From the IMG/VR virus record IMGVR_UViG_3300032291_001597, positions 1 to 64,000 of that record: 64,000 bases of DNA; one strand, written 5' to 3'. The position numbers were made by a program, and so were the translations under genes. Under the pieces are notes generated by a model that did no database searches, was not told where the DNA came from, and saw nothing but the letters and a program-made list of their open reading frames with translations. Positions 4,079 to 64,000 of the stretch are shown one piece after another; position 1 is the first letter of the stretch, and each line of letters starts with the position of its first letter. The stretch comes from a virus.

Positions 4079-4547
4079 ACCAGACGAAGAGGCTCAGCGT
4101 TGGCAAGACAAAGCCTTATGCGCTAAAAAAGAAAACAAAAGAATGATTGACTGGTTCTTTTCTGACGATACAGAAGAAAAGTACGCAGCCAAGAATCTTT
4201 GCTTTGCTTGTCCAGTCAGAAAAGATTGCGTGAAATACGCCCTCGAAACTAAGAAAATTTGGGGAGTGTGGGGAGGTAAGGATGAAAACGAACTTCGCAG
4301 GACCCTATCAGTGGATGCCAATGGGGACGAGTATCGCAGAAACAGATATCCTCAGTGTCCATACTGCTCTGCTAGAACTAACAAACTAAAAACTTACATT
4401 GTGGACCTACCTGGCGGTGGACGCTGGACCACGGCGCGAATGGTGGAGTGTAACGACTGCGGTTTTGCTTGGAGAAGTAGAACCAGTGCTAATGCGGTAA
4501 ATGCGTATCACTCGCAAAAAACCGATAAGAAGCCTAAGAAATCTTAG
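4068..4547 (+). CDS. whiB: WhiB-family Fe-S transcription factor with C-terminal zinc ribbon
   Basis: WQDKALC...AKNLCFACPVRKDC...GVWGG core plus CPYC...CNDC extension. Confidence 0.85.
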   Translation: MLFEPDEEAQRWQDKALCAKKENKRMIDWFFSDDTEEKYAAKNLCFACPVRKDCVKYALETKKIWGVWGGKDENELRRTLSVDANGDEYRRNRYPQCPYCSARTNKLKTYIVDLPGGGRWTTARMVECNDCGFAWRSRTSANAVNAYHSQKTDKKPKKS

Positions 4548-5590
4548 TTAGGTTTGTAGAACTCCATATTTTTTGCCAAACGTTCGTTTTTTGGGTCTAA
4601 CTCAAGAGCAGTGGCTCCATATTTATAGGCGCTATCTTTGTCTCCTAAGTTGTATGAAGCAATAGCGGCAAGGTCATACGGAAGTGCGCCCCAAGCAAAT
4701 TCTTCACACAGATAGTCAAGTGGCTTTTCTTTAGCAAGCAAAGATATTTTTGCCCAGTCCAAGCATTCTTCCCAGTTTTGTTGTTCATAGTAATACTGAG
4801 ATAGTTCTACGGCGGACTCACGCCTATTAGGTGCTTCTAGGTTTGCTTTTACTAGCCAATGCTCGGCTGAGTCTGGATTGCACTTAGCGAGATACCTGCA
4901 AGACGCGGCACGCTCTGGACCCCACTTAGAGTTTGGGTTCTCCAAGTGCTTGATAAACATATTGGTGGCTTTGTCATACATTTTGTTGAAGTAATACTCG
5001 CGGGCTAAGTAATACTGATTACGGTCATTCGTTGGGTCTTCTAAGACAGCCAGTTCTAGCAAGGGAAAGTATTGACCACGGCTTTTTGTGTCGTCTGGAT
5101 GGTGGTGAATCTCTAGTCCAATCCACTCTTGTATTTCTTGGATTCGGTCAGCAGTAATTACTTCGTGGACTGGGTGCTTCCATCTATATCCGTGACGTCT
5201 GTGGATTTTATCTCCACCGTATTGGAGCCCTGGCGAGCCATCTTCTTGCCAAGACCAAGTGTATTGATATCTAGGTCTAGTGGTTTCTGACTTTATTTTC
5301 TCAATTTCTTTACGCCATCCTTCAACAAGGACTTCATCCATGTCCAAGGCAATACAAATATCAATATCGTCAGGAAGAAGAGCAAGGCTAACATTCCTAG
5401 CGTCATCGAAACGCCAAGGACTAATACTAGCCACAGCAACCTCAACGCCTGCGCTCCTCGCCACTTCCACAGTCTTATCTGTAGAACCAGTGTCCAATAT
5501 AAATCTATAATCTGCTTCTTCACAAGACTTAGCCCACCTTTCGACAAATTGCTCTTCGTTTTTAGCAATTGTGTAAACCGCTACTTTCAC
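4544..5590 (-). CDS. GT2 glycosyltransferase with C-terminal TPR repeats
   Basis: IAKNEE, LDTGSTD, FDDARN, LDMDE (DxD), PVHE; TPR-like helices. Confidence 0.85.
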   Translation of the reverse strand: MKVAVYTIAKNEEQFVERWAKSCEEADYRFILDTGSTDKTVEVARSAGVEVAVASISPWRFDDARNVSLALLPDDIDICIALDMDEVLVEGWRKEIEKIKSETTRPRYQYTWSWQEDGSPGLQYGGDKIHRRHGYRWKHPVHEVITADRIQEIQEWIGLEIHHHPDDTKSRGQYFPLLELAVLEDPTNDRNQYYLAREYYFNKMYDKATNMFIKHLENPNSKWGPERAASCRYLAKCNPDSAEHWLVKANLEAPNRRESAVELSQYYYEQQNWEECLDWAKISLLAKEKPLDYLCEEFAWGALPYDLAAIASYNLGDKDSAYKYGATALELDPKNERLAKNMEFYKPN

Positions 5591-6015
5591 TTCTGATTGC
5601 TCTCCAAAATACGTCTACGTAGTTCGGTGCTACTGACTCCGTCGGTGTATGGCAAGTAGACCAGAGCGATGTCTCTCTCATTCAACCACTCTTGAGTAAA
5701 ACTCATTTGTGAGTGGTAGTCCTTAGTAGCCCAGTCCGAACCAACAACAATAAAATCTGGCTTTACTAGTTCGATTGCGGGCTTGGAGTCAGCGCCTCCA
5801 AAGTTTGGGATTACCTCGTCAACCCACTTACAGTTCAGTAGAACTTCTCTGCGTTCTTCATAAGACATAATCAAAGTCTTACCTTTGTATTGCTTAGAGA
5901 AGTCATTTAGGTTTAGGGCAACGGTCACGGAGCCGAGACGCGACGCTCTTTCCAATAATCTGTAGTGACCGTGATGCGGCAAATCAAATGAACCGCCCGT
6001 GTAAACTCTAGGCAT
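5587..6015 (-). CDS. Cytidylyltransferase (TagD/RfaE-like)
   Basis: GSFDLPHHGH (HxGH), VVGSDW, YLPYTDGVSST. Confidence 0.85.
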   Translation of the reverse strand: MPRVYTGGSFDLPHHGHYRLLERASRLGSVTVALNLNDFSKQYKGKTLIMSYEERREVLLNCKWVDEVIPNFGGADSKPAIELVKPDFIVVGSDWATKDYHSQMSFTQEWLNERDIALVYLPYTDGVSSTELRRRILESNQK

Positions 6016-6826
6016 TTTTTACCGCCTCGTAATTTGTGTACATAATTTCTCTAGATAAAGTAACCGAACCTGAGTTTCTAACTTTTTCTAGAATTTTATC
6101 AATTATATGTTTTATTCTTTCAGGTCTAATCATTAGGACTTCCATAGCAAATTTGTTGAAAGCGTTGAGCGTTGCGTAAAACTCTTCTAGTCCTTGTTGT
6201 TGAGAATAAGACTGAGTCGGAGGGTGATACATAGTTACGGAACTATCTCTATAAATAATTTTATTCAAGAATATGGCTAGGGCGCAGTAGGCAATGTCTA
6301 ATCCCCACCCAGAGCGCATCTTTGTGAAGTCTATTTCCCCTGTCTCTATTGTCCAGTCTTGAAACATAGAAATGTAGCCAGCCATATCTCTAGACATCGC
6401 CACATAAATCCCGTTGGTGTTGGTAGACAAATACATTTCTGGGTATTTGATTGATTTACTTATTGTAGAAGGTTCTCCGACAAACACGTCGTTGGTGCAG
6501 TCTGGAGCGAGAAGGACTAAGTCCCTATTATCTTCAAATAGTTTTTCTATACGACGAGTGTATTTAGAGTAACTGTCATACTTCATATCTCCAGCATTAA
6601 AGATAAATATGTCGTGCTCTGTAGACAAGAAGTCTTTTATAGCATTAAAAAAATGTCCGTAGTATCTGACGTCTTCGGCTGTGTTCCAGTGTGATGTTTG
6701 ATTTTCTAATTTTGAGACGTTGTAAAACTTATGAGGAACATCTGCTTCCACTAACTGCCTACTTATGTCTAGGCAATTGTCTATGGCTTCGTCCCAAGCA
6801 ACGATATAAGTTTTACTGCTAGTCAA
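6008..6826 (-). CDS. Putative GT-A glycosyltransferase-like protein
   Basis: IFIFNAGD, GWGLD and MYH motifs; lies inside the GT/cytidylyltransferase operon. Confidence 0.45.
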   Translation of the reverse strand: MTSSKTYIVAWDEAIDNCLDISRQLVEADVPHKFYNVSKLENQTSHWNTAEDVRYYGHFFNAIKDFLSTEHDIFIFNAGDMKYDSYSKYTRRIEKLFEDNRDLVLLAPDCTNDVFVGEPSTISKSIKYPEMYLSTNTNGIYVAMSRDMAGYISMFQDWTIETGEIDFTKMRSGWGLDIAYCALAIFLNKIIYRDSSVTMYHPPTQSYSQQQGLEEFYATLNAFNKFAMEVLMIRPERIKHIIDKILEKVRNSGSVTLSREIMYTNYEAVKNA

Positions 6827-8695: not shown

Positions 8696-8886
8696 GAGTT
8701 AGAATAGTAATCCAATAAATTTAGCCTAGTTGCTCTTATTATTGTATCCTATAATTGCTCACATCGATTTGAGCAAACACAGCCCCTAAAGTTGCTACAT
8801 TTGTCGTCTTGGGTGTTATTATGGGTGAACGATTGAAAGGCAATTATGGAACGACACTTATGCGCGGAGAGGGTTTAGCGACACAT

Positions 8887-11511
8887 ATGGACTCTCCACA
8901 CCAACAAAAACTTAAAAAAGCATCCGCGTGGTACGCCCAAAAAGGCTGGAAAATACTTCCTTGCTATGGCATTAATGACTCTGGACGTTGTACCTGTAAT
9001 GGTCAGCACAGCGAGCCTAAAGACGTAGGTAAGCACCCCACTATTGGAGATTGGAACGTTCGCGCTACTGACGACGAACTAGTGGTCCACAACTGGTGGC
9101 AAAACTCTCCTGCCAATAACATCGGCGTTGTTTGTCAAAAAACTGGTTTTGTAGTTATCGATATTGACCCTCGTTCTGGAGGTATCGATTCTTGGGATAA
9201 ATTTTTAGAACTTCTTGAGCACGACTTGCCAGATACTGTCGAGGCATACACTGGCGTATATAGCCACAAGGGTAAGCAGGTAAGAGGTAGACACATATTT
9301 TTTAAGTGCTCTCCTGATGAAAAACTTTTAGGTAACTTGAAGGCCGCTGGGTTGTCTGGTATTGACATCAAGCACAACGGATACGTGATGCTTGCTCCCT
9401 CTCGTCACGGCTCTGGTGTCGACTATGAGTGGGCGGACGGTAAGGCTCCTTGGCAGATTGAAATGGCAGACGCCCCAGACAACCTACTAAACGTGTTGCG
9501 TAAGTCTGGGCGTAGGTCTTCCACTTCTTTGGGAGAAGGCGACTGGGGCTGGCTCGGTGACTTAGACTTCAAAGGTGACCGCGTAGACATCGCAAAGATG
9601 CTTGAAGAGGGTATCGATGAAGGCTCTCGCGCTATTGATATCTATAAGTTGGCTTGCGCTATCTCAAACAAGTTTGGTGTAGATACTCCAGAAAAGCGTC
9701 TAATGATTGAAACCATGATGATGCGTTTTAACTTTGAAAAAGTTCGTCCACCGATGGACCTTGAAGGTCCCAACTCGCTACTTATGCACACTCGTCGTGC
9801 GATGGATTTTGTTGCTGAAAATCCTGTGACTGAACTTATTTATCCTGGGCTACAAGAGTGGTCGGAAAGAAATAGAGCACAAGCCCAAGCCAGTGTTCAA
9901 AGAACTGACACCAGACCAAGAACATCTGACCCAGATGACGTGGAAGAGTCTGACTCTTCTTACTTGCCTGGAACTCTCGGTGGAGAAATGACCGAGGCTG
10001 CTCGTAGTGGTATGTCCATCTCAGAGGCTTTCAGTTCTGGAAATGTTGATGTTCCTAAGGACCCAGATGCTTTGACCGAAGCAGAGGGTGGAACTCCGGG
10101 CAAGCGTTCGCTATCTGATACTGGTAACGGCAGACGTCTTGTAGACACATTTGGTTCGTCTATTCGCTACACGCCTGGAATTGGTTGGTTTATTTGGGAC
10201 GGTCAGTATTGGCGTCCAGATGCTGAAGATTTAGGTATGCAAGAACTATGTAAAAAACTTGCTCCGATTATTGCTACTGAAGTTGTCCACTATGACGACC
10301 CAGATAAGCAAACTGAAGTTGTGAAGTGGTCTAGTCAGGCTAAATCAAACTCACGTCTAAAGTCTGCTATTGAGAGCGCCAACTCTGACGAACGTGTTGT
10401 TACGTCAGTAGAGCGCTGGGACGGTGACGAATACTTGCTGGGTGTGTCGAACGGTGTTGTTGACCTAAGGACTGGAGAACTACTAAAGGGACGCCCAGAC
10501 CTATTCATTACTAAGCGTGCTCCAGTTGGCTATACCCAAGGAATGAGAAATATCCGTTGGGAGCAGTTTGTGGATTACGCAACTGGTGGAGATAAAGAAC
10601 TTCAGGATTGGCTCCAGCGTGCTGCTGGATACACTCTTACTGGTCTAAATACCCAAGACGTTATGTTCTTGGTTTATGGTCCACCGGGTTCTGGTAAGAA
10701 CACATTTGTCGAGGCAATCGTCAAGGCTCTTGGGACTGCTCAGTATGCTTGGCCTTTGGACTCTAACATTCTTGCTGATGCTAACGGACAGTCTTCTTCC
10801 ACTGACCTATACCACTGGGCTGAGTTGCGTGGTCGTCGTATGGTTTGGGTTGACGAGTTGCCTGAGTCTGAGCGTCTAAAAGAGAACGCAGTGAAGAAGT
10901 TGACAGGTTCATCTGAAATTTCTGCTCGTTCTCCTGGTGAGAAGCCTTTTACATTCAAGGCTATGGCTAAGTTGTGGGTCACTACAAACCACCGACCTAT
11001 GATTACTGACGATGCTATGTGGCGTCGACTACGCCCAATTCCTTGGAGCAACGTGCCTGAGTCGCCAGACCCTGACCTAAAGGCATACTTGTTTGACCCA
11101 GAGGGCGCTCTGCCTGCTATTTTGTCTTGGGCAGTTGAAGGTGCCATCAAGTATCTTGGCTCTAGTGCTCGCGACCCGTTGGGTTGGTGTACTGCCGTGT
11201 CAGAAGCGTCTGACATTTACCGCAAGAACGAAGACCGCATTGGTATGTTCCTAAACGAAGAATCTAGAGAGAGCGAAGGCGCTCTTCTAAGAGTCAGGGA
11301 ACTGTATCAGATTTACCGCGCTTGGTCTGAAGACCGAGGTGAAAAGCCTATGACTCAGATTGCTTTCCAGCGCAAGTTGTCTGACCGAGGTATGGAGATA
11401 ATTGGGCAGGGAACGAACGCTGAAATTAAGGGCCGTATGCTGGTACCTAGGGCAGTTCCTCAGAGTTCTGATGTAAATTGGTCGCTTGTCACTCGCTTTA
11501 GTTCACTATAA
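8887..11511 (+). CDS. Bifunctional primase-polymerase fused to D5-like SF3 helicase
   Basis: Prim-pol KHP, NIG, VIDIDP, GRHIFF, GYVMLAPSRH; D5_N DTGNGRRL; Walker A GPPGSGKNT, WVDE, TTNHRP. Start uncertain (ORF open from 8809); 8887 chosen for the GGAGAGGG SD. Confidence 0.9.
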   Translation: MDSPHQQKLKKASAWYAQKGWKILPCYGINDSGRCTCNGQHSEPKDVGKHPTIGDWNVRATDDELVVHNWWQNSPANNIGVVCQKTGFVVIDIDPRSGGIDSWDKFLELLEHDLPDTVEAYTGVYSHKGKQVRGRHIFFKCSPDEKLLGNLKAAGLSGIDIKHNGYVMLAPSRHGSGVDYEWADGKAPWQIEMADAPDNLLNVLRKSGRRSSTSLGEGDWGWLGDLDFKGDRVDIAKMLEEGIDEGSRAIDIYKLACAISNKFGVDTPEKRLMIETMMMRFNFEKVRPPMDLEGPNSLLMHTRRAMDFVAENPVTELIYPGLQEWSERNRAQAQASVQRTDTRPRTSDPDDVEESDSSYLPGTLGGEMTEAARSGMSISEAFSSGNVDVPKDPDALTEAEGGTPGKRSLSDTGNGRRLVDTFGSSIRYTPGIGWFIWDGQYWRPDAEDLGMQELCKKLAPIIATEVVHYDDPDKQTEVVKWSSQAKSNSRLKSAIESANSDERVVTSVERWDGDEYLLGVSNGVVDLRTGELLKGRPDLFITKRAPVGYTQGMRNIRWEQFVDYATGGDKELQDWLQRAAGYTLTGLNTQDVMFLVYGPPGSGKNTFVEAIVKALGTAQYAWPLDSNILADANGQSSSTDLYHWAELRGRRMVWVDELPESERLKENAVKKLTGSSEISARSPGEKPFTFKAMAKLWVTTNHRPMITDDAMWRRLRPIPWSNVPESPDPDLKAYLFDPEGALPAILSWAVEGAIKYLGSSARDPLGWCTAVSEASDIYRKNEDRIGMFLNEESRESEGALLRVRELYQIYRAWSEDRGEKPMTQIAFQRKLSDRGMEIIGQGTNAEIKGRMLVPRAVPQSSDVNWSLVTRFSSL

Positions 11512-27981: not shown

Positions 27982-28371
27982 GTGGAGATAGTTTATTTCT
28001 CTAACCACTCTGGCAATACTAAAAAATTTGTCGAAAAATTAACTGACGCGCCGATTCGCATCCCTATCAAATGGGAGGAGTCCGAGCCTCTGATTGTTAA
28101 TAAACCTTATGTTTTGTTTGTCCCTACTTATGGTGGAGGCAATGATTCACACGTTGTGCCAAAGCAAGTTGTTAAATTTCTAAACATCTTGGATAATAGG
28201 CAGAACATAAAAGCAGTAGTCGGTATGGGAAACACCAATTTTGGTGAGCACTATTGCCGAGGAGCAGAAGTTGTTGCTCAAAAAACAGGTGTGCCAGTGA
28301 TATACAAAGTTGAAATTACTGGAACTTTAGACGACGTTATGGAAGTAAATAAAAGAATGGAGTTGCTGTGA
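27982..28371 (+). CDS. nrdI: Class Ib RNR flavodoxin NrdI
   Basis: [24 protein letters not shown]; GTG start after SD GGGAG. Confidence 0.92.
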
Positions 28372-30482
28372 CAGATTACAGTTACCACGAACTAAACGCG
28401 ATGCTCAACCTTTACGATGATGAAGGCAAGATTCAATTTGGTAAGGACAAAGAGGCAGCACGCGCTTACTTCCTAGACCACGTAAACCAGAACACCGTCT
28501 TCTTCCACTCGATTGAGGAAAAACTCCACTACTTAGTTGAGAACGAGTACTACGAGAAGGAAGTTCTAGACCAGTATGACCCTGAGTTCGTAAAAGAAGC
28601 CTTCAAGCACGCCTACGCTTACAAGTTCCGCTTTGATGCTTTCCTAGGTGCCTACAAGTTTTACACCTCTTACGCCCTAAAGACTTTTGATGGCTCGCGT
28701 TACTTAGAGCGCTTTGAAGACCGAATCGTAATGAACTCCCTAACCTTGGCTGCTGGAGACAAGAAGCAAGTTCTTGCGCTAATTGACGAAATTATTACTG
28801 GACGTTTTCAGCCTGCTACTCCAACTTTCTTAAACGCTGGTAAGAAGCAGCGCGGCGAGTTCGTCTCCTGCTTCCTACTTCGCATCGAAGACAACATGGA
28901 GTCGATTGCTCGTGCAGTCAACTCTGCTCTACAACTTTCAAAGCGTGGTGGCGGAGTGGCATTGAGCCTAAGCAACTTGCGCGAGCACGGAGCACCAATT
29001 AAGAAAATTGAGGGTCAGTCATCTGGTGTAATTCCTGTAATGAAAATGCTAGAAGATGCTTTCTCATACGCCAACCAGTTGGGTGCCCGTCAGGGTGCAG
29101 GAGCGGTCTACCTAAACGCCCACCACCCAGACATCTTGAAGTTCTTGGACACCAAGCGTGAGAACGCTGACGAGAAGATTCGTATCAAGACTCTTTCCAT
29201 CGGTGTGGTTATTCCAGACATCACTGTCGAATTGGCTAAAACGAACGAAGATATGTACCTCTTCTCTCCTTATGACGTAGAGCGTGTATATGGCGTTCCG
29301 TTCGGCGACATCTCGGTTACTGATAAGTATCAAGAAATGGTAGATGACCCTCGTATCAAGAAGAGCAAGATTAAGGCTCGTGTTTTGTTTGAGCGTATTG
29401 CGGAACTTCAGTTTGAGTCTGGCTACCCATACATCATGTATGAGGACACCGTGAACAAGGCAAACCCTGTCGAGGGTCGTATCAATATGTCAAACCTCTG
29501 CTCTGAAATTCTTCAGGTCAACACTCCAACCACCTATAACAACGACCTGTCTTACAAGGAAATTGGTAATGACATCTCTTGTAACTTGGGTTCGATGAAC
29601 ATCGCTAAGGTGATGGACGGTGGAGACATTCTAAAAACTGTTGAAACCTCTATTCGTGCCCTGACTTCAGTTTCAGACCTGAGTTACATTGACTCAGTTA
29701 TGTCTATTGCCGAAGGAAACAAGCGTTCCCGCGCTATTGGACTAGGTCAAATGAACCTCCACGGATACTTTGGTCGTGAAAAAATTCACTATGGCTCGGA
29801 AGAGGCGTTGGACTTTACCAACATCTACTTCTACACCGTGCTGTTCCACGCTGTAAAAGCATCAAACAAGTTGGCGATTGAGCGAGACTCTAAGTTCCAC
29901 AACTTTGAAAACTCGAAGTATGCCAGCGGCGAGTTCTTCACTAAGTACATTGAGAACGAGTGGAAGCCTAAGACCAAGCGTGTAGAAAAGTTGTTTGCTG
30001 ACGCTGGAATCGAAATCCCTAACCAAGAGGACTGGAAAAAGTTGGCTACCAAAGTTGCCAAGCACGGCATCTACAACCAGAACCTTCAGGCTGTGCCACC
30101 GACTGGTTCGATTTCTTACATCAATAACTCGACCTCTAGCATCCACCCGATTGCTTCTCAGATTGAGATTCGCAAGGAAGGTAAGTTGGGTCGCGTCTAC
30201 TACCCAGCGCCTTATCTGACCAACGACAACCGAGAATATTTCAAAGATGCTTATGAAATTGGTCCAGAAGCAATTATCGACACTTACGCTGAGGCAACCC
30301 AGCACGTTGACCAAGGTCTATCGCTAACCCTCTTCTTCAAGGACACCGCAACCACTCGCGATGTCAACCGTGCACAGATTTACGCATGGAAAAAGGGCAT
30401 CAAGACCATTTACTACATTCGCATTCGCCAGATGGCTCTCGACGGCACTGACGTCGAAGGCTGTGTCTCCTGCATGCTCTAA
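28368..30482 (+). CDS. nrdE: Class Ib ribonucleotide reductase alpha subunit
   Basis: [39 protein letters not shown]-terminal CVSCML. Confidence 0.97.
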
Positions 30483-31658: not shown

Positions 31659-31970
31659 TTGTCTCTAGGCGTTTTTCTGTCCGACGAAGAAATAGAAAAA
31701 TTTAGCAAGTATGGTCCGCCAATGTGCGCTGAAACTGACCCAGAGGCTTTCTTCCCTCAAGAAAACTACGACTCTCGTGGAAATTTGATAAGTTCTTCTT
31801 ATTATGACGAATCTGGCGCAAAAGCGCTTTGTAATGCTTGTCCTTACAAAATAGAGTGCTTGGCATTGGCTATCAAGTTACAGGCAGAAGGTATTTGGGG
31901 CGGGACAAATGCCAATGAACGCAACCTGCTAGTGAAACGAATGAAGCGTGCTGGTAAACTTCTAAAATAG
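31659..31970 (+). CDS. whiB: WhiB-family transcription factor
   Basis: CAETDPEAFFP...AKALCNACP...C...GIWGG. Confidence 0.88.
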   Translation: MSLGVFLSDEEIEKFSKYGPPMCAETDPEAFFPQENYDSRGNLISSSYYDESGAKALCNACPYKIECLALAIKLQAEGIWGGTNANERNLLVKRMKRAGKLLK

Positions 31971-33573: not shown

Positions 33574-33759
33574 CAACAGGTTGTCGACGGAGAACCTGGA
33601 GTATGGCTGAATAATCCTCAAAGTCAAATGGGGAGGATAAGGCAACGTCTGACCTTAGCGGGTCGCCTTAGCGGGCAAAGGGCGGGTGTGCTCAAAAGCG
33701 GTACTGATGAACCGTATTGACTAGGCACTGGTGGTAAAAGGCAATCCACCTACTCACCA
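33574..33759 (+). ncRNA. Structured pseudoknotted ncRNA with tRNA-like ends (manA-motif-like)
   Basis: Extended -10 TGTTATAGT; stems CAGGTT/AACCTG, ATCCTC/GAGGAT, AAGGC/GCCTT, GCGGT/ACCGT, GGTGG/CCACC, GAGTA/TACTC; pseudoknot AGTCAA (33622-27)/TTGACT (33717-22); ends in ACCA. The family resemblance is from memory only. Confidence 0.6.
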
Positions 33760-33790
33760 CCACTCCTCTCATTAATGGGGAGTGGTACCC

Positions 33791-33861
33791 GCGTGTGTAG
33801 TTCAATGGCAGAACTCCAGTTTTCCAAACTGGTAGCGCAGGTTCGATTCCTGCTACACGCT
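33791..33861 (+). tRNA. tRNA-Gly(TCC)
   Basis: Acceptor GCGTGTG/TACACGC, D arm GTTC/GAAC, anticodon arm CCAGT-TTTCCAA-ACTGG, T loop TTCGATT; CCA not encoded. Confidence 0.93.
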
Positions 33862-36933: not shown

Positions 36934-37006
36934 CCCCGCGTAACTCAGTGGATAGAGTGAGACCCTTCTAATGTCTAAGTCGCAAGTTCGATTCTTGCCG
37001 CGGGGA
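36934..37006 (+). tRNA. tRNA-Arg(TCT)
   Basis: Acceptor CCCCGCG/CGCGGGG, D arm ACTC/GAGT, loop CTTCTAA, T arm GCAAG-TTCGATT-CTTGC; C31.U39 mismatch; no CCA. Confidence 0.9.
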
Positions 37007-44074: not shown

Positions 44075-46576
<2,502 letters not shown>

Positions 46577-53923: not shown

Positions 53924-53997
53924 AAGTTTTTATAAATAAACTTGACAAAAAGATTTTTATCACTCATACTGTTACCAACAACTCTTGAAGGAGAGAA

Positions 53998-56499: not shown

Positions 56500-56561
56500 G
56501 CTCCTTCCCCTAGATTCTCCAGCGAGGGGGTGGGTTAGTTCCCCCACTAACTCACCCTCTC
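56491..56561 (+). ncRNA. Tandem hairpins with pyrimidine/C-rich loops at the 3' end of the AAA+ gene
   Basis: AGAATCTAGG-CTCCTTCC-CCTAGATTCT and 16-bp stem 56524-56539/56546-56561 with loop TCCCCC. Confidence 0.55.
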
Positions 56562-56633
56562 TTCAACTTGACAATCAATAAAAAAACCTTTACCATTACA
56601 GAGTAGCAATTAGATGAAAGGACACAAAGACTA

Positions 56634-58622: not shown

Positions 58623-59048
58623 ATGGGACAGTATCATCGGCTCGTCAATCTAGACAAGCAGGAGTGGGTAGACCCACACGGCTTGGGATTGGGTAGCAAA
58701 CAATTAGAGCACACGGGTGCGTTCAACGGGTCGCTCTCTGACGCAATGTATTTACTCGTAATGAGTAGCCCGAGACGCGGTGGCGGAGACTGGGCAGAGA
58801 CCGAGGTCTCTGGGCGCTGGGTTGGAGATAGGGTCGTTCTACTGGGCGACTACACAGAAGACGCAGACATTCCCGGTATCGAGAACGCAGGGAAACTCTA
58901 CGCTCAGGTCGAGCAAGAGTTTCTGGACATCACGCCTCAGGTGCGAGACGCTTTCAAACTCGTGTTCAAATTGGACTACGAGATGAAGGTCAGCGATTGG
59001 GACTCTGAGTATTCGTATTGGATAGTCAAGGACCCTGAGCGAGTCTAA
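58623..59048 (+). CDS. Conserved-type hypothetical phage protein
   Basis: MGQYH.LVNLDK.E...GRWVGDRVVLLGDY pattern; own promoter and SD. Confidence 0.7.
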   Translation: MGQYHRLVNLDKQEWVDPHGLGLGSKQLEHTGAFNGSLSDAMYLLVMSSPRRGGGDWAETEVSGRWVGDRVVLLGDYTEDADIPGIENAGKLYAQVEQEFLDITPQVRDAFKLVFKLDYEMKVSDWDSEYSYWIVKDPERV

Positions 59049-59057
59049 AAACTGACG

Positions 59058-59093
59058 AAAGCCACGAGCCTCGAAAGGGGTTCGTGGTTTTTT
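59058..59093 (+). terminator. Intrinsic terminator
   Basis: GCCACGAGCCTC-GAAA-GGGGTTCGTGGT followed by TTTTT. Confidence 0.85.
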
Positions 59094-59291
59094 CGTATCT
59101 TGAAAAAGGGGTAGCCCTTTTTCCAAGCGAGGTTTTGACTCGCTCGCTCACTCGCTGTGAAATAAAAATCTGAGTCGTGCTTCTCCTGAACGACACGCCA
59201 AAAAAAAGTTCTATAAATAACTTGACTTAATGTCAGGGCTATGTTTTACTATACCTACATCAAAGTTCTTTGGAAGGAGAACAAACAAAAA

Positions 59292-59696
59292 ATGGCAAAT
59301 TACTACGAGTCAGCAAGAAGCAATTATTTCTTTGTCAAGGACATTGAAGCGTTCGAGGAAGAACTAAATGGTTCTGGTCTCGAAATCAGCACCAAGAAGA
59401 TTGACGACCTAACTCAGGTGTGTCTTCTCGCAAGCGAGGAAAATGGTTTCCCCTTCGAGAAATACGACCTAGACACTTTCGACTCAGAAGAGTTGGATTG
59501 GTCAGACATCTTCAAGCGACACCTAGTTGATAACCAAGTGGCAATCATTATGGGGTCTGGTGCTGAGAAACTCCGCTACATCACAGGCTGGGCTATGGCG
59601 TTCAACAACAAGGGCGAGAGCAAGTCAATCAACCTCGACGCAATCTACGACCTAGCCAAAGAACTTGGCTCAGAAATCACCACAGCAACATACTAA
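59292..59696 (+). CDS. Hypothetical protein
   Basis: MANYYESARSNYF...GAEKLRY; ATG after SD GGAAGGAG. Confidence 0.7.
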   Translation: MANYYESARSNYFFVKDIEAFEEELNGSGLEISTKKIDDLTQVCLLASEENGFPFEKYDLDTFDSEELDWSDIFKRHLVDNQVAIIMGSGAEKLRYITGWAMAFNNKGESKSINLDAIYDLAKELGSEITTATY

Positions 59697-59774
59697 AAAT
59701 AGTTGGGCGTGGTGCTTGACAAATGTCAGGCACTACGCTTATACTGAAAACATAAGTTCTTGGAAGGAGAACAA

Positions 59775-59894
59775 ATGGACATCACAACCCAAGTCTGTAT
59801 TTGCGACATCTGCGAATCACCAGACAAGCACAACATCTACGCAGAAGGTTTCTGCCAAGAGTGCTACGAAGAGTGTCGAGAGGAAAACAACTAA
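59775..59894 (+). CDS. Small zinc-finger protein, 39 aa (not in ORF track)
   Basis: Own promoter; SD GGAAGGAG; CDIC...CQEC. Confidence 0.6.
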   Translation: MDITTQVCICDICESPDKHNIYAEGFCQECYEECREENN

Positions 59895-60040
59895 TGACAG
59901 AAATCAACAAGTGCGACTTGTGCCTAGAGGTCTCAACTGAGGCTCTAGTCAAGTTCGTGAAATTAGACATCTGCGCTGAGTGCGCCGAGAAAATTGACGA
60001 ACAGCACGAGCGTCTTATGCGCTATCTAGACCAACTCTAA
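59894..60040 (+). CDS. Small zinc-finger protein, 48 aa
   Basis: Coupled TAATG; CDLC...CAEC. Confidence 0.6.
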   Translation: MTEINKCDLCLEVSTEALVKFVKLDICAECAEKIDEQHERLMRYLDQL

Positions 60041-60057
60041 AAAAGGAAAATAAGCAA

Positions 60058-60327
60058 ATGGAAAAAATCACAGTAAATCTAAAAAGCGAGGCGTTCGCCT
60101 CAATAGACCAACTCATTTCGACTTGGGACAACACCTTCTTGTATCGCCTAACTTGGACAGACAATGTGGCAAACACTTGGGAAGAGTATTACCCAACTTT
60201 GCCAATCGCTCTCGTTCGACTTTCGGCGCTCGCAGAGTGCGTGGATTTCCCAGACAAGTCGTTCAGGGCAGAGCCAGCGAAGTTCATTACTTCTGCTCAG
60301 GAGTTCCTAGACGAGCAGGTGGCATAA
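60058..60327 (+). CDS. Hypothetical protein
   Basis: SD AAGGA. Confidence 0.6.
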   Translation: MEKITVNLKSEAFASIDQLISTWDNTFLYRLTWTDNVANTWEEYYPTLPIALVRLSALAECVDFPDKSFRAEPAKFITSAQEFLDEQVA

Positions 60328-60386
60328 AGAACGCTACCTAGGCGTTGATGTAAAATGAAAACATACAAAAGAAAGTTGAGGCTCTT

Positions 60387-60605
60387 ATGACTCAGTATCA
60401 GGTAGTAGTGCCTGTCTCGTTTATGCTCGAAGCAAATAGCGAGGCAGAGGCAAAGCGAATTGCCACAGGGCTAATTCACGAACACATTAATGGAAACAAG
60501 TTAGAGGCAGAGTTTATTGAGGAAACTTTTGGCAAGCAAGAAAAGCCAAACTTCTCTGTTCAAGACTTGGAAGCCATTGAGTGTTCCGCACTTGACAACG
60601 AATAA
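60387..60605 (+). CDS. Hypothetical protein
   Basis: SD GAGG; EANSEAEA motif. Confidence 0.55.
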   Translation: MTQYQVVVPVSFMLEANSEAEAKRIATGLIHEHINGNKLEAEFIEETFGKQEKPNFSVQDLEAIECSALDNE

Positions 60606-60652
60606 ATAAATCATTACCATTGAGGTAATGTCAAAAAACAAAAAAGGACAAA

Positions 60653-61042
60653 ATGACAACTATGACAAAGGTTCTACAAGACTCAGCGTTCTACACGAAC
60701 GAAGCAGGCACAGAGGTTGTATGGGACAACGACCCTAACAAGCGCTTCTATGTCGTGCGTAATGGCGAAATGCGTATCCACGCAACCAAAGATGGAGAAC
60801 ACATTGAGGTTATTCGCTACACAGACCAACTCCGAGACTTTGGCATTACAGATGATTCCGCGCTCGCGGTCTGGTCTGCTAAAGATGAAGAAGTATTTTC
60901 TTGGGTAAACAACTCTTGGTTTGAGGTCTATGACACAAACGACAGCGAGTGGTATTCAGACCCAATCCACGCTTTCGACGAGGCAGTAGAGTTCGCTCTA
61001 GCCATCTCAGATAAGTTCGGCAAGGACAAGGTGGTGAAGTAA
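60653..61042 (+). CDS. Hypothetical protein
   Basis: Own promoter; SD AAGGA; NNSWFEVY. Confidence 0.65.
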   Translation: MTTMTKVLQDSAFYTNEAGTEVVWDNDPNKRFYVVRNGEMRIHATKDGEHIEVIRYTDQLRDFGITDDSALAVWSAKDEEVFSWVNNSWFEVYDTNDSEWYSDPIHAFDEAVEFALAISDKFGKDKVVK

Positions 61043-61317
61043 TGAAGGTGCGTCAAGCAGTTGGCGAGGTAATCCGTGAGGCACGCCTCGAACGCAAGAT
61101 GACTCTTCGAGACCTGTCTTCAGTTTCTAGCGTCGCCCTCGGATACCTGAGCGAACTAGAGCGTGGACAGAAAGAGGCTTCATCAGAAATCCTCGACAGC
61201 GTGGCACTCGGCTTGGGTATTTCACTTTCCGAATTGGTGGTTCAGACGGGTTATAGAATAATGTTGAACGAACCCGTCAACGAGCCTGAGAGACTCTTAG
61301 AGTTCGCACGGGTCTAA
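61042..61317 (+). CDS. XRE-family HTH regulator, ClgR-like
   Basis: GEVIREAR...TLRDLS...VALGYLSELERGQKEASSEIL, matching the actinobacterial ClgR signature. Confidence 0.8.
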   Translation: MKVRQAVGEVIREARLERKMTLRDLSSVSSVALGYLSELERGQKEASSEILDSVALGLGISLSELVVQTGYRIMLNEPVNEPERLLEFARV

Positions 61318-61332
61318 ATAGTTAGGAACACA

Positions 61333-61512
61333 ATGGGTGCTTTAGAGACGCTCTGGAAACTTGCTGACGATTTTGAAATCAAACCCGAACGGCTCGCCGA
61401 GAGTGCGGAACTGTCCGCTCTGATTTCGAAGAACACCGCCTACGCCGAGTTATCGGCTTGGGTAAAGAAGAACCTTGGTGGTTTCAAGACCGCCAAGAAA
61501 TCTTCTAAATAA
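61333..61512 (+). CDS. Hypothetical protein, 59 aa (not in ORF track)
   Basis: ATG after SD AGGA; open to TAA 61510-61512. Confidence 0.55.
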   Translation: MGALETLWKLADDFEIKPERLAESAELSALISKNTAYAELSAWVKKNLGGFKTAKKSSK

Positions 61513-61549
61513 ACTTGACACGGCTAGGCTTATCGGCTAGCCTTGAAGA

Positions 61550-61668
61550 ACAACGGGCGTAGGTTCACCCCCCCTCGAACCTACGGCTCGTGCGTGATGA
61601 GTTTTATTGCTTTCTCATCACGGCTCGCCCCCTAACTGCTTCCCCCAGCGGTTAGGGGGTTTTCTTTT
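61550..61668 (+). ncRNA. Stand-alone three-hairpin sRNA with C-rich loops (6C-like)
   Basis: Promoter TTGACA-17-TAGCCT; CGTAGGTTC-ACCCCCCCTC-GAACCTACG; CGTGATGAG/CTCATCACG; CCCCCTAACTGCT-TCCCCC-AGCGGTTAGGGGG followed by TTTTCTTTT. Confidence 0.65.
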
Positions 61669-61776
61669 GACGGCTCGCCCTTACACGCTATGCGTGTCGC
61701 CCGTAGCCCTTGACGGATAGCCCTGAGCGTGTATAATGGTAGGACAGCCAACGGAGACGCAACGGAAGGAGTTGTA

Positions 61777-62004
61777 ATGGCAAGGAAGAAGAAGCCAGCA
61801 CTCGACCAAGCGAACGAAGCAAGACGCAAGGCTGAGGCGAAAGCCTTGGCAGAGATACTGCGAGAGCGAGCGAGGTCGAACGCAAGTGGCGTTCACGAGG
61901 ACAAGCGAACAAAGCGTTTGCGAACTCGTGAGGCGAAGACGAGGGAAGCCCTGAGAGATTTTGACTCAGGGCTTTTTTCGTATCGAGCGAAGCGAGGGGT
62001 CTAG
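61777..62004 (+). CDS. Small very basic protein whose ORF runs through an intrinsic terminator
   Basis: SD GAAGGAG; RSNASGVHEDKRTKRLRTR; hairpin 61946-61974 plus T-run lies upstream of the stop. Confidence 0.6.
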   Translation: MARKKKPALDQANEARRKAEAKALAEILRERARSNASGVHEDKRTKRLRTREAKTREALRDFDSGLFSYRAKRGV

Positions 62005-62222
62005 GTTTTCGCTTGGAAAAAGAGAGACCCCTTTACGCTTGACCGGGCTTCGAGTCTCGCCGCTGAGATTTTTATTTCGTAATCTCAAATCCTTTGACTC
62101 ATCAACTCAGCGACACGCCAAAAAACTTTTTTGAAAATGTGCTTGACAAATGTCGCAGGTGTCCCCTATCCTGACAGAGTGAAGTTAGATTGGCTTCACG
62201 AAAAAAGCAAAAGGAGTTTCAA

Positions 62223-62669
62223 ATGACCAACCCAGCAAGCGAGCGACAGGTCGCATACATCAACACGCTAATCGCAGAGCGTGGCTACCCAGAGCCTATT
62301 GACCTAAAAACCTTGACATCAAGAACTGCCAGCGAACTCATCTCCAAGTTGATGGCTATGCCAAAACTTGGGCGTGGGATTGACAAGGCTTTGTCTCAGG
62401 GTATGTATCACCTAGCAGGCGACATCTATCGCTTGAAGGAGAGTCGTGAGACAGGTCGTCTTTACGCCAAGCGTCTCACCATTGACCACAAGTTCGAGTA
62501 TGCTCCGGGGATTGCCTATCGCCTAACCAGCGAGAACAAAATGACCTTAGAGCAGGCAAAGGCTTATGGGGTCGAGACAGGGTTCTGCTGTGTCTGTGGG
62601 GCGTTCCTAACTGACGAGCGTTCTGTTCGTGATGGCATTGGCCCGGTCTGCGCCAAAAAGTATTTTTAG
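62223..62669 (+). CDS. DUF6011-like zinc-finger protein
   Basis: PASERQ..YI N-terminus; CCVCG..LTD..S...GIGPVC; SD AAGGAG. Confidence 0.75.
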   Translation: MTNPASERQVAYINTLIAERGYPEPIDLKTLTSRTASELISKLMAMPKLGRGIDKALSQGMYHLAGDIYRLKESRETGRLYAKRLTIDHKFEYAPGIAYRLTSENKMTLEQAKAYGVETGFCCVCGAFLTDERSVRDGIGPVCAKKYF

Positions 62670-62801
62670 GCGTTATAAATCTGTTATAAAAAAGTTTATA
62701 AATGAACTTGACAAGACAGACAATAGCGACAATACTTAGACCATAACTGAATAACAACTGAATACAAAAAACTCAATCATCAAAAATCCAAGAAGGACAT
62801 A

Positions 62802-63101
62802 ATGAAAGAAATCAAGAAAGTTGAACTCGGTTTCAACGCAGACGCACGACAGGCACTCGCAGAGTTGCTTGAAGCCAAGGCAGTTATCGCTCAGGCTACC
62901 GCCAAGAAGGAAGCCGCCCAGAAGGTTCTGTTTGACCTAATCGGCGACAACAACCAAGCAACCTTCGGTGGCGTTCTATCGTTCAAGGTAATTGACGGCA
63001 AGAACCGCCACGCTGACCTGACAATTCTCGAAGAGAAGTATCCCGAGATTTTCGCCGAAGTAATCCGCACAACTGAATACAAGCAAATCCGAACCGCCTA
63101 A
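62802..63101 (+). CDS. Hypothetical phage protein (coiled coil plus D..L.E.YPEIF motif)
   Basis: Own promoter; SD AAGGA. Confidence 0.65.
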   Translation: MKEIKKVELGFNADARQALAELLEAKAVIAQATAKKEAAQKVLFDLIGDNNQATFGGVLSFKVIDGKNRHADLTILEEKYPEIFAEVIRTTEYKQIRTA

Positions 63102-63124
63102 TCCCCCAACGGCGTTCGGTCGGC

Positions 63125-63157
63125 AAGCCCCCAGAGCAATCTGGGGGTTTTGTCTTT
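63125..63157 (+). terminator. Intrinsic terminator
   Basis: GCCCCCAGA-GCAA-TCTGGGGGT followed by TTTGTCTTT. Confidence 0.8.
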
Positions 63158-63455
63158 AACGGCTTGCCCTTGACGGCTCGCCCCTATGACCGCCAACGGA
63201 TAAGACCAACGGCTCGCCCTTGACGGCTCGCCTGATACGGATTGACGGCTCGCCCTATGCCAACGGCTAGCCCTTGACGGATAGCACGCCAGCGGGTCGC
63301 TGACGGCTCGCCCTTGACGGCTCGCCCTTGACGGACAGACGGACACAGACGGCTCGCCCTATGACCGCTGACGGCTTGCCCGTAGGAAGTCCAACGGCTT
63401 GCCCTAAGAGACCCTGACGGGTCGCTAACGGCTTGCCTATGACGGCTTGCCCTAA
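63157..63455 (+). repeat. Array of about 13 ACGGCT(C/T)GCCCT direct repeats
   Basis: Same-strand copies with irregular short gaps; extra dispersed copies near 58597, 61620 and 61670. Confidence 0.85.
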
Positions 63456-63811
63456 ACGCCCAACGGGTGAGCGTGTAGAGCCTGACGGGTCGTGTTTTGA
63501 CGGGTGGGTAGTGGGAGTCGGGAGAGCCTGACGGATAGGTAAAAGGGGGGTGAAGCGATTGACGGGTGGGAAGGGGAAGTCGCCGGGGATTGACGGGTGG
63601 GTAAAGGGGTAGTGGATTTTCCAGACTAGACGCAGAGGCTGAGTCATGTGAAGGCACTCGAAGAAGGGGGTCGAAGGTGGGGGGACTCATGAAGGGGGGT
63701 TGGGAGTCATGGGGGGGAAGTGGGAAGAAGGGGGGAAGTTCAGGGGGGAAGGGGAAGCCGGGGGAGTTTTGGAAAAGGGGTAAGGGATTTTCCAAGCGAG
63801 TTTTTAGGTCT

Positions 63812-63880
63812 AAAAAACACAAGATACACAAAAAGTCAAGTTGAGTCGAAAAAACATAAGATACACAAAAAGTCAAGTTG
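63812..63880 (+). repeat. Two-copy 32-bp direct repeat (37-bp period)
   Basis: AAAAAACAYAAGATACACAAAAAGTCAAGTTG at 63812 and 63849. Confidence 0.85.
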
Positions 63881-64000
63881 TGGTGAGTCGAAGTTCAGCA
63901 AGAAGCACGCAAGATGAGCAAGATAAGCAATAAAACAGGAGAAGTTCGAGAAAGTTGGGTCGAGAACAGCCTGGAGAAAAAGGGGTATAGGTTTTTCCAA

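Follow-up and report, generated by a model that had tools for sequence, protein, structure and literature searches.

Does the non-coding stretch that follows an HTH operon in the early region of a phage genome give rise to a regulatory RNA, or does it only finish the transcript of the genes in front of it? The element that raises this question lies at positions 61515–61668 (+ strand) of the window, by which we mean the whole stretch of DNA analysed: the first 64 kb (64,000 nt) of a 132,624-bp (132.6-kb) virus record, the ends of which overlap by 120 nt. Direct reading of the sequence reveals a promoter-like site, three hairpins and a U tract (Table 1). A first-pass annotation, made from the letters alone, had described the element as a stand-alone, 6C-like small RNA of the early region.

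The genome encodes two WhiB-type proteins (4101–4301 and 31722–31928), a Prim-Pol/D5-type primase-helicase (8809–11511), and a class Ib NrdE (28368–30482) that is ~80% identical to freshwater Microbacteriaceae, Aquiluna and Nanopelagicus MAG contigs. Because of the two WhiB genes, and because NrdE is closest to freshwater actinobacterial MAGs, the phage is probably an actinophage and its host a freshwater actinobacterium; comparison with actinobacterial sRNAs is therefore reasonable. No close cultured phage was found (protein matches are <60% identical), and a blastn search of positions 61300–62250 against 50,697 phage records returned no match. Across 14 studies, DNA of the locus turned up in metagenome runs from lakes and fresh water; one of these studies may itself be the source of the record. 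Positions 60600–62700 were also sought in RNA runs and yielded none; all matches were metagenomic DNA contigs from lakes and fresh water.

Architecture and genomic context of the element

The minimum free energy of the 124-nt stretch 61545–61668 is −61 kcal/mol, while shuffled sequences give −33.95 kcal/mol (sd 3.73; z −7.25), and 0 of 200 shuffles were as stable. Directly 3' of the hairpin 3 stem lies the U tract TTTCTTTT, the arrangement by which intrinsic (Rho-independent) terminators are recognized, and no terminator-like site in a consensus scan of positions 59000–64000 ranks above hairpin 3. Hairpin 3 and its U tract thus look like an intrinsic terminator. The sole ORF inside the element is a 30-aa TTG frame (61543–61635). 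It has no Shine-Dalgarno sequence, and its frame is broken by a 1-nt difference in C-run length in close relatives (locus L002 and contigs of metagenome runs X3 and X12); it was rejected as a gene. The hairpins, loops and U tract of the first-pass annotation, and its statement that they enclose no credible ORF, are thus borne out. Judged from its sequence, the element is conserved, structured and non-coding, is ~120 nt long, and carries C-rich apical loops.

Table 1. Coordinates of the element, its neighbours and a second RNA motif (window positions)
Feature	Position	Strand	Description
HTH_3 gene	61042–61317	+	~200 nt upstream of the element; same unit as the 59-aa ORF
Upstream 59-aa ORF	61333–61512	+	Last gene of the unit with the HTH_3 gene; the element is the unit's 3' untranslated end
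Promoter-like site	61515–61543	+	TTGACA 61515–61520, 17-nt spacer, TAGCCT 61538–61543
Hairpin 1	61553–61591	+	Arms 61553–61566 / 61577–61591; 14 pairs, one bulge
Hairpin 1 apical loop	61567–61576	+	ACCCCCCCUC, C-rich, includes C7
Hairpin 2	61593–61622	+	Arms 61593–61601 / 61614–61622; 9 pairs
Hairpin 2 loop	61602–61613	+	UUUUAUUGCUUU, U-rich
Hairpin 3	61627–61660	+	Arms 61627–61640 / 61647–61660; 14 pairs (8 G-C)
Hairpin 3 loop	61641–61646	+	UCCCCC
U tract after hairpin 3	ending 61668	+	UUUCUUUU
Downstream flank	61668–61737	+	Repeat copies TGACGGCTCGCCC (61668) and TGACGGATAGCCC (61711)
manA motif / tRNA gene region	33579–33760, 33791–33861		Second tRNA gene 36934–37006

The TTGACA-17-TAGCCT site is present as first described, and begins 3 nt past the TAA stop codon of the 59-aa ORF. 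A consensus promoter scan of positions 59000–64000 omitted it because TAGCCT agrees with TATAAT at only three of six positions. Its upstream context (TCTAAATAAACTTGACA) agrees with that of other early promoter-like sites of the phage: (T)ATAAATAAACTTGACA is common to the 61513 site and the sites at 53940, 59220 and 62706, and AAACTTGACACGGC is common to the sites at 61513 and 58551. Between ~54 and 70 kb the + strand carries a family of such sigma-70-like sites, which have (T)ATAAATAAACTTGACA in common and whose −10 boxes follow the pattern TAnnnT (examples in the family are TACCAT, found twice, AATACT and CATACT). The element sits among these early-type sites, and the placement in the early region holds. 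Members of the family lie at 53940, 54431, 56566, 58551, 59220, 60590 and 62706, and on to 70198 (all +).

Both hexamers of the site are identical in contigs of four lake-metagenome runs; the spacer varies. Two more distant relatives have a comparable site where their homologue of the upstream gene ends, directly past its stop codon: L131 reads TTGACG-17-TAGTCT, the spacer being unrelated, and L125 reads TTGACT-17-TATACT. A promoter-like site is hence found in three of five lineages (the window with L002, L131, and L125), and a dedicated promoter in the window lineage is plausible, with a predicted transcription start near 61550. By contrast, in four of nine homologues (L133, L128, L236 and L237) the sequence reads TAG-ACTTAGCACGG and hairpin 1 begins ~10 nt past the stop, with no −35 or −10 box; L134 falls clearly into neither group. 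The element is therefore a 3' UTR in these four, and being an independent gene is not one of its conserved properties. "Stand-alone" can be kept for the window lineage, where the element has a plausible early-type promoter of its own, a feature that recurs in two others; it does not extend to the four homologues without a promoter.

A small gene homologous to the 59-aa ORF precedes the element in L002, L131, L133, L128, L236, L237 and L125. On the downstream side of the window copy, the repeat at 61711 overlaps the −35 box of a promoter (TTGACG-16-TATAAT, 61710–61737) that serves the gene of a 75-aa basic protein (61777–62004). This protein belongs to no Pfam or PHROG family, and its Atlas neighbours are without names.

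Retention of hairpins and loops among related phages

A covariance model, R1, was built from the window and L002, which is 95–98% identical to the window. R1 finds eight homologues besides the window, with scores of 49–149 bits and belonging to ~5 lineages (L131 scores 107 bits; L133, L128, L237, L236 and L134 score 52–57; L125 scores 49). L135 (34.6 bits) and the other weak matches among 26 metagenome loci look like generic terminators without C-rich loops, and were left out before homologues were counted. The resulting set of nine consists of the window, L002, L131, L133, L128, L236, L237, L134 and L125.

When folded singly, all nine sequences make hairpins at matching places. Firstly, each has a hairpin with a C5–C7 loop at the hairpin 1 position (examples of the loop are GUUCCCCCCCUUAACG, UUUCCCCCAACG and CAAACCCCCCCUUUUC), on stems that are unrelated between lineages. 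Secondly, hairpin 2 has a U-rich loop in eight of the nine, again on stems that differ between lineages; in the ninth, L134, additional C-loop hairpins replace it, and the C-rich loops total four. Thirdly, the stem of hairpin 3 is near-invariant in all nine, and its loop is UCCCCC or CCCCCC throughout; the exchanges in this hairpin are one C-G to U-A (two sequences versus seven) and one G-U to G-C. At least two hairpins carry C5–C7 apical loops in every sequence, and the number of hairpins ranges from three to five. Since hairpins 1 and 2 have dissimilar stems from lineage to lineage, the loops are what is retained—the first-pass annotation had looked to relatives for conserved loops, and these are found in nine of nine sequences for both hairpin 1 and hairpin 3.

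That annotation had also looked to related phages for covariation, and here the outcome depends on the alignment. In an alignment fitted to the model (A5), 97.4% of cells pair. Shuffles give 86.4%, with none of 500 as high, and sliding the partners gives 30–47%. Both-sided changes are seen in 15 of 37 pairs of this alignment, which was itself fitted to the structure, while a sequence-only MAFFT alignment of eight of the nine homologues (L134 omitted) shows them in 2 of 24 predicted pairs. RNAalifold, run on the same MAFFT alignment of eight, recovers hairpin 3 and part of hairpin 1. The true degree of covariation lies between the two counts; the hairpins themselves are retained. Hairpins 1 and 2 may represent replacements rather than homologues that covary base by base.

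Differences between close relatives leave the pairing intact. In hairpin 2, an A-to-G change at 61600 is linked with a T-to-C change at 61615, turning an A-U pair into G-C (L002, L131 and the X3/X12 contigs). Within the window population, (i) an A-to-G change at 61647 turns a U-A pair of hairpin 3 into U-G, with the pair kept, (ii) the hairpin 1 loop varies from C7 to C6, and (iii) a G-to-C change at 61594 moves the foot of the hairpin 2 stem to a new register. In run X3 the element shows nine differences in 123 nt, compared with two in 183 nt upstream and none in 132 nt downstream, which counts against strong sequence constraint on the element.

In nine of nine sequences the fold of the + strand is more stable than that of the − strand, by 1 to 8 kcal/mol, and contains 2–4 G-U pairs, which together point to a + strand RNA. 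The U tract is broken by a C in L131, L133 and L125 (UUUCCCCUUU, CUCCCCCUUU).

A different non-coding element with C-rich loops lies past a VWA-like gene in three loci whose HTH protein is ~50% identical (L118 at ~1240–1360, L119 at ~1160–1280 and L120 at 1182–1289). A long stem encloses UUUCCCCCUUUCC in these more distant phages, and the terminator behind it has a CCCCC loop. Being a different element at another place (R1 E 0.0009–0.005), it was not counted as a homologue.

Possible roles: a trans-acting RNA, a transcript end or a binding platform

The explanation that we favour, tentatively, is that the element encodes a phage small regulatory RNA of ~120 nt that acts in trans, pairing through its C-rich loops. 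Such an RNA would be transcribed in the window phage from its own early-type promoter, starting near 61550, and would probably also be produced as the 3' end of the HTH operon, whose transcript would begin at the promoter-like site at 60590; both transcripts would end at hairpin 3 and its U tract (61668). The unpaired C runs of loops 1 and 3 would then pair with G-rich single-stranded stretches of mRNAs, in ribosome-binding regions or leaders. The targets could be host or phage mRNAs, and pairing would proceed without a chaperone, as for 6C and other C-rich-loop sRNAs. Host takeover or the timing of phage genes, proposed in the first-pass annotation, is a putative role. The discrete transcript, its pairing with targets, and who those targets are make up the part of this account that we infer; the structure, its conservation, the C-rich loops and the promoter- and terminator-like signals are observed, as is the actinophage context.

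Phage sRNAs and C-rich-loop sRNAs are each already known. Actinobacterial sRNAs often work via C-rich loops and, to our knowledge, Actinobacteria are without Hfq and ProQ. In the open-access papers and preprints searched, no description of a phage-encoded C-rich-loop sRNA was found. Phage-encoded sRNAs with a described function come from enterobacterial phages in the available parts of the open-access literature searched; for actinophages, the available part of one study reports non-coding RNAs detected by RNA-seq, with a mechanism that is not known (PMC5712189). If the reading is correct, a phage RNA that borrows the targeting design of its host's phylum would offer a concrete handle for study. 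Its C runs are 5–7 nt long and hence simple to mutate, and loop mutants could shed light on the reprogramming of translation by actinophages, or on the timing of their early genes. The question is of relevance to freshwater actinobacteria, which are abundant and uncultured, and to their phages.

The strongest rival places the function in cis, at the 3' end of the operon. Here, the element would end and stabilise the HTH-operon transcript and shield it from the strong promoter at 61710, a role that we regard as unlikely but deserving of close attention; its C-rich loops would serve termination or 3' protection (for example, Rho loading or the alternative-terminator role formerly suggested for C-rich stem-loops) with no target pairing, which we hold to be doubtful to the same degree. 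Position argues for such a role. The element lies directly past the operon's last ORF in all eight sequences in which the upstream gene is visible, its third hairpin is terminator-like, and in the four of nine homologues without a promoter a 3' UTR is the only possibility.

The genome-wide distribution of C-loop hairpins is also consistent with a role at transcript ends. Strong hairpins (at least nine pairs) with loops of at least five C occur at 56524–56562, at 61568 and at 61642. The first of these has 16 pairs and the same UCCCCC loop as hairpin 3, has no U tract, and is flanked by an AAA_5 ATPase gene on one side and on the other by the promoter-like site at 56566. A bulged C-loop hairpin lies at 63083–63113 (loop UAAUCCCCCAA) and opens what amounts to a smaller copy of the module (63083–63156): the UAAUCCCCCAA-loop hairpin, a terminator (CCCCCAGAGCAATCTGGGGG+TTTTGTCTTT), and then a repeat. 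This copy follows the stop codon of a 99-aa gene (62802–63101) and is invariant in L002 and L003. The hairpins with loops of at least five C are all at the 3' ends of + strand early units.

Three points stand against a purely cis-acting transcript end. Firstly, one hairpin suffices for termination, yet three to five are retained. Secondly, the C runs of the loops are kept while the stems are replaced, and this in a genome that avoids C runs: the + strand has 34 runs of at least five C where shuffles predict 55.6 (G runs of at least five are depleted too, with 40 observed and 88.4 expected). Three C runs of at least five nonetheless fall within 80 nt in the element, and the C7 of hairpin 1 is the only + strand C run in the genome longer than five. 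Thirdly, a promoter directly in front, as found in three of five lineages, would be pointless for a mere terminator. The C-rich loops are clearly selected, yet they are a general 3'-end feature in this phage.

Another explanation starts from the short repeats that are interleaved with the element. With up to one mismatch tolerated, the window has 24 copies of the 10-mer ACGGCTCGCC (2.5 expected), 22 of them on the + strand; the fuller form of the repeat is (TG)ACGGCTCGCC(C), of 10–13 nt. Copies in and around the element lie at 61582, 61620, 61670 and 61713, the −35 boxes of three promoter-like sites (58551, 61513 and 61710) are overlapped by the repeat, and ~20 copies form a same-strand array at 63157–63452. 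In the whole genome the core motif is limited to 61.6–63.6 kb, save for four strays. A scan of viral contigs with a single 14-nt motif gave >112 stretches, mostly single chance matches; several copies were found only in L040 and L047. The phage genome to which L047 belongs (G001) has a similar array, followed by AT-rich DNA.

The hairpins and the ACGGCTCGCC repeats could thus form, together with the 63157–63452 array, one regulatory system that serves as a platform for protein binding, an arrangement we consider improbable. In it, a phage protein (such as the HTH_3 protein encoded upstream) or a host factor would bind DNA or RNA, with the repeats as an operator or decoy cluster like that of L5-type Pleft; this, too, strikes us as improbable. 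The available sections of PMC5712189 offer a precedent in L5 Pleft, where the transcribed non-coding region contains repressor-binding stoperators. Relatives also carry a variant, ACGGCACGCC, around their hairpins. However, the motif leaves unexplained both the conserved C-rich loops and the + strand-specific G-U pairs. Moreover, in G001 the variant that flanks the hairpins is ACGGCACGCC while the array holds mostly ACGGCTCGCC, and the hairpin and array motifs therefore do not clearly covary.

Candidate targets and known RNAs of similar design

A non-coding region of ~1.2 kb runs from 63105 to ~64300–64400 in the genome (L123). In it (TTG)ACGGCT(C/T)GCC(C) is repeated ~20 times on the same strand, TTGACGGGTGGG three times and AAAAACAyAAGATACACAAAAAGTCAAGTTG two or three times; further, G-rich repeats have the form GA(C/G)TCATG(A)AGGGGGG, and the region includes an A-rich tract. 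An ATG ORF at 63914 is disrupted by a 20-nt insertion in L002 and L003. On its sequence, the region is a candidate replication origin or regulatory hub. An imperfect palindrome, TTGGAAAA(G)GGGTAnnGGnTTTTCCAAGCGA, which looks like an operator, occurs at 59100, 62009 (inverted), 63600, 63771 and 63976, and thereby occupies several early intergenic regions.

In the window lineage, each of the three loops has a perfect same-strand complement within 63105–64400: 10 nt at 63545 for hairpin 1, 12 nt at 63925 for hairpin 2, and 8 nt at 63713, 63731 and 63744 for hairpin 3. The sequence GGGGGAAG is found at three places only on the + strand of the genome, all within 63713–63751, and six of the eight G runs of at least six fall within 63545–63750. 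The summed loop match to 63545–63936, a region chosen post hoc, falls within the best 0.5% when set against 12,932 control windows. Complementarities of 9 nt are ubiquitous in the phage, chance matches of 12–13 nt also occur at 45673 and 100562, and G001 has an AT-rich stretch in place of the window's G-rich region. Taken together, the post hoc choice, the chance 12–13-mers and the missing G-rich region in G001 make the complementarity to 63545–63936 weak.

RNA I of ColE1 is a known RNA of comparable build: it is ~110 nt long, has three stem-loops, works via loop contacts, and is a perfect antisense of its target. The element resembles it in size, in number of stem-loops and in its putative action by loop contact, but has only 8–12-nt loop complementarities, to a region 2 kb away, that are statistically weak. 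On a reading of this kind the RNA, encoded in trans and resembling RNA I, would regulate a transcript crossing the replication or regulatory hub, which we think highly improbable. Each loop would contact its own site in the 1.2-kb repeat-rich, origin-like region: GGGGGGTGAA at 63545 for hairpin 1, the three GGGGGAAG copies at 63713–63751 for hairpin 3, and AAGCAATAAAAC at 63925 for hairpin 2.

A related reading arises from L236 and G001, in which the hairpin 2 loop GUUUGGUUUC complements GAAACCAAAC(A) in 5–8 early leaders. This sequence sits just 5' of the Shine-Dalgarno sequence (L236, 1182–9098; L127 of G001, oriented, 5030–6204), and the match between the hairpin 2 loop and early leaders lies in the top 1.4% (L236) and 3.5% (G001) of random windows, a modest statistical backing. 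Global switch-off of early-gene translation by the RNA via GAAACCAAAC is a remote possibility. In the window lineage, the hairpin 2 loop shows no enrichment of matches in early leaders (rank 15–23%). On the host side, GAGGGGGG occurs one to four times per candidate host genome, not above the reversed control. Four of these sites adjoin a start codon and one opens a long ORF (257 aa); they gave no lead and were set aside as targets.

Bacterial 3'-UTR-derived sRNAs offer another parallel. These arise from their own promoter or are released by processing, are known mainly from enterobacteria, and are Hfq-dependent. The element shares with them its place directly past the last ORF, its use of the operon terminator, and, in some lineages, a putative internal promoter. 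It differs from this mainly enterobacterial, Hfq-dependent class in that both the promoter start and any processing are putative here.

Early non-coding RNAs of actinophages are a further point of comparison. According to the available sections of PMC5712189, host-toxic non-coding RNAs are produced early and in abundance by Cluster A mycobacteriophages, and the Pleft RNAs of L5, D29 and StarStuff resemble the element in having an early promoter, putative in the element's case, and a region with short asymmetric repeats, which in Pleft are protein-binding sites. As described there, however, Pleft RNAs come from ~500 bp at the genome end and have no evident stem-loop terminator; those sections do not mention C-rich loops. 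Their sequences also differ, with no similarity to positions 61300–62250 in the blastn search of 50,697 phage records. Non-coding RNAs of the Pleft type are also mentioned for phage WC1 in the available part of PMC10986025.

The first-pass comparison was with 6C (B11; RF01066). As set out in the available sections of PMC6486639, 6C of M. tuberculosis comprises 93 nt followed by poly-U and has three loops, two of them C-rich (L2 and L3); L3 carries seven contiguous C, and the criterion for the family is worded as 'six conserved cytosines'. The same sections state that L2 and L3 pair with G-rich ribosome-binding sites with no chaperone needed, and that overexpression halts growth. More generally, mycobacterial genomes are described there as depleted in G runs, actinobacterial sRNAs as commonly having unpaired C-rich stretches, and C-rich stem-loops as having formerly been suggested as alternative terminators (PMC6486639).

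The element is like 6C, so far as those sections describe it, in having three hairpins, two C-rich apical loops (one with C7) and a U tail, and in the probable phylum of its host. The two stem-loops with C-rich loops by which 6C is recognized are thus present (ACCCCCCCUC and UCCCCC), as a resemblance of design only. The differences are equally plain. In the element it is hairpins 1 and 3 that carry the C-rich loops, separated by a U-rich hairpin, while those of 6C, in the sections available, are L2 and L3; furthermore, the element is phage-borne, lies at an operon 3' end, has three to five hairpins, and shows no detectable homology to 6C in sequence or structure.

Covariance-model searches, to which the first-pass annotation had deferred the question of 6C membership, did not bear it out. 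No match to RF01066 (gathering score 47 bits) was obtained at E<=10 in the 951-nt region 61300–62250, nor in the whole 132.6-kb genome, where four candidates were scored and none reached that threshold. The best Rfam matches in 61300–62250 are sar and rdlD, at 15–17 bits, and reflect terminator shape alone. RF01066 also found nothing in five candidate host-like actinobacterial genomes; it stayed below the cut-off in the Corynebacterium glutamicum control as well, and the sensitivity of this search is therefore limited. Mimicry of a host gene, which the first-pass annotation had proposed, likewise found no counterpart, R1 giving no match at E<=0.1 in the five genomes (best E 0.245), although 6C is a chromosomal gene conserved across Actinobacteria and a host copy should align with one captured by a phage. 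"6C-like" thus stands for the design (three hairpins, two C-rich loops, U tail) and falls for RF01066 membership; on its sequence, the element is 6C-type in design at best and outside the 6C family. That it is a captured true homologue of host 6C RNA is extremely unlikely, as the two share the design alone (~120 nt, three hairpins, two C-rich loops, C7, U tail), whereas the placement of the C-rich loops, the RF01066 searches (with their weak control) and the R1 search of candidate hosts all speak against it.

Elsewhere in the genome, a manA RNA motif (66 bits, above the gathering score) adjoins a tRNA gene, and a second tRNA gene follows 3 kb on (Table 1).
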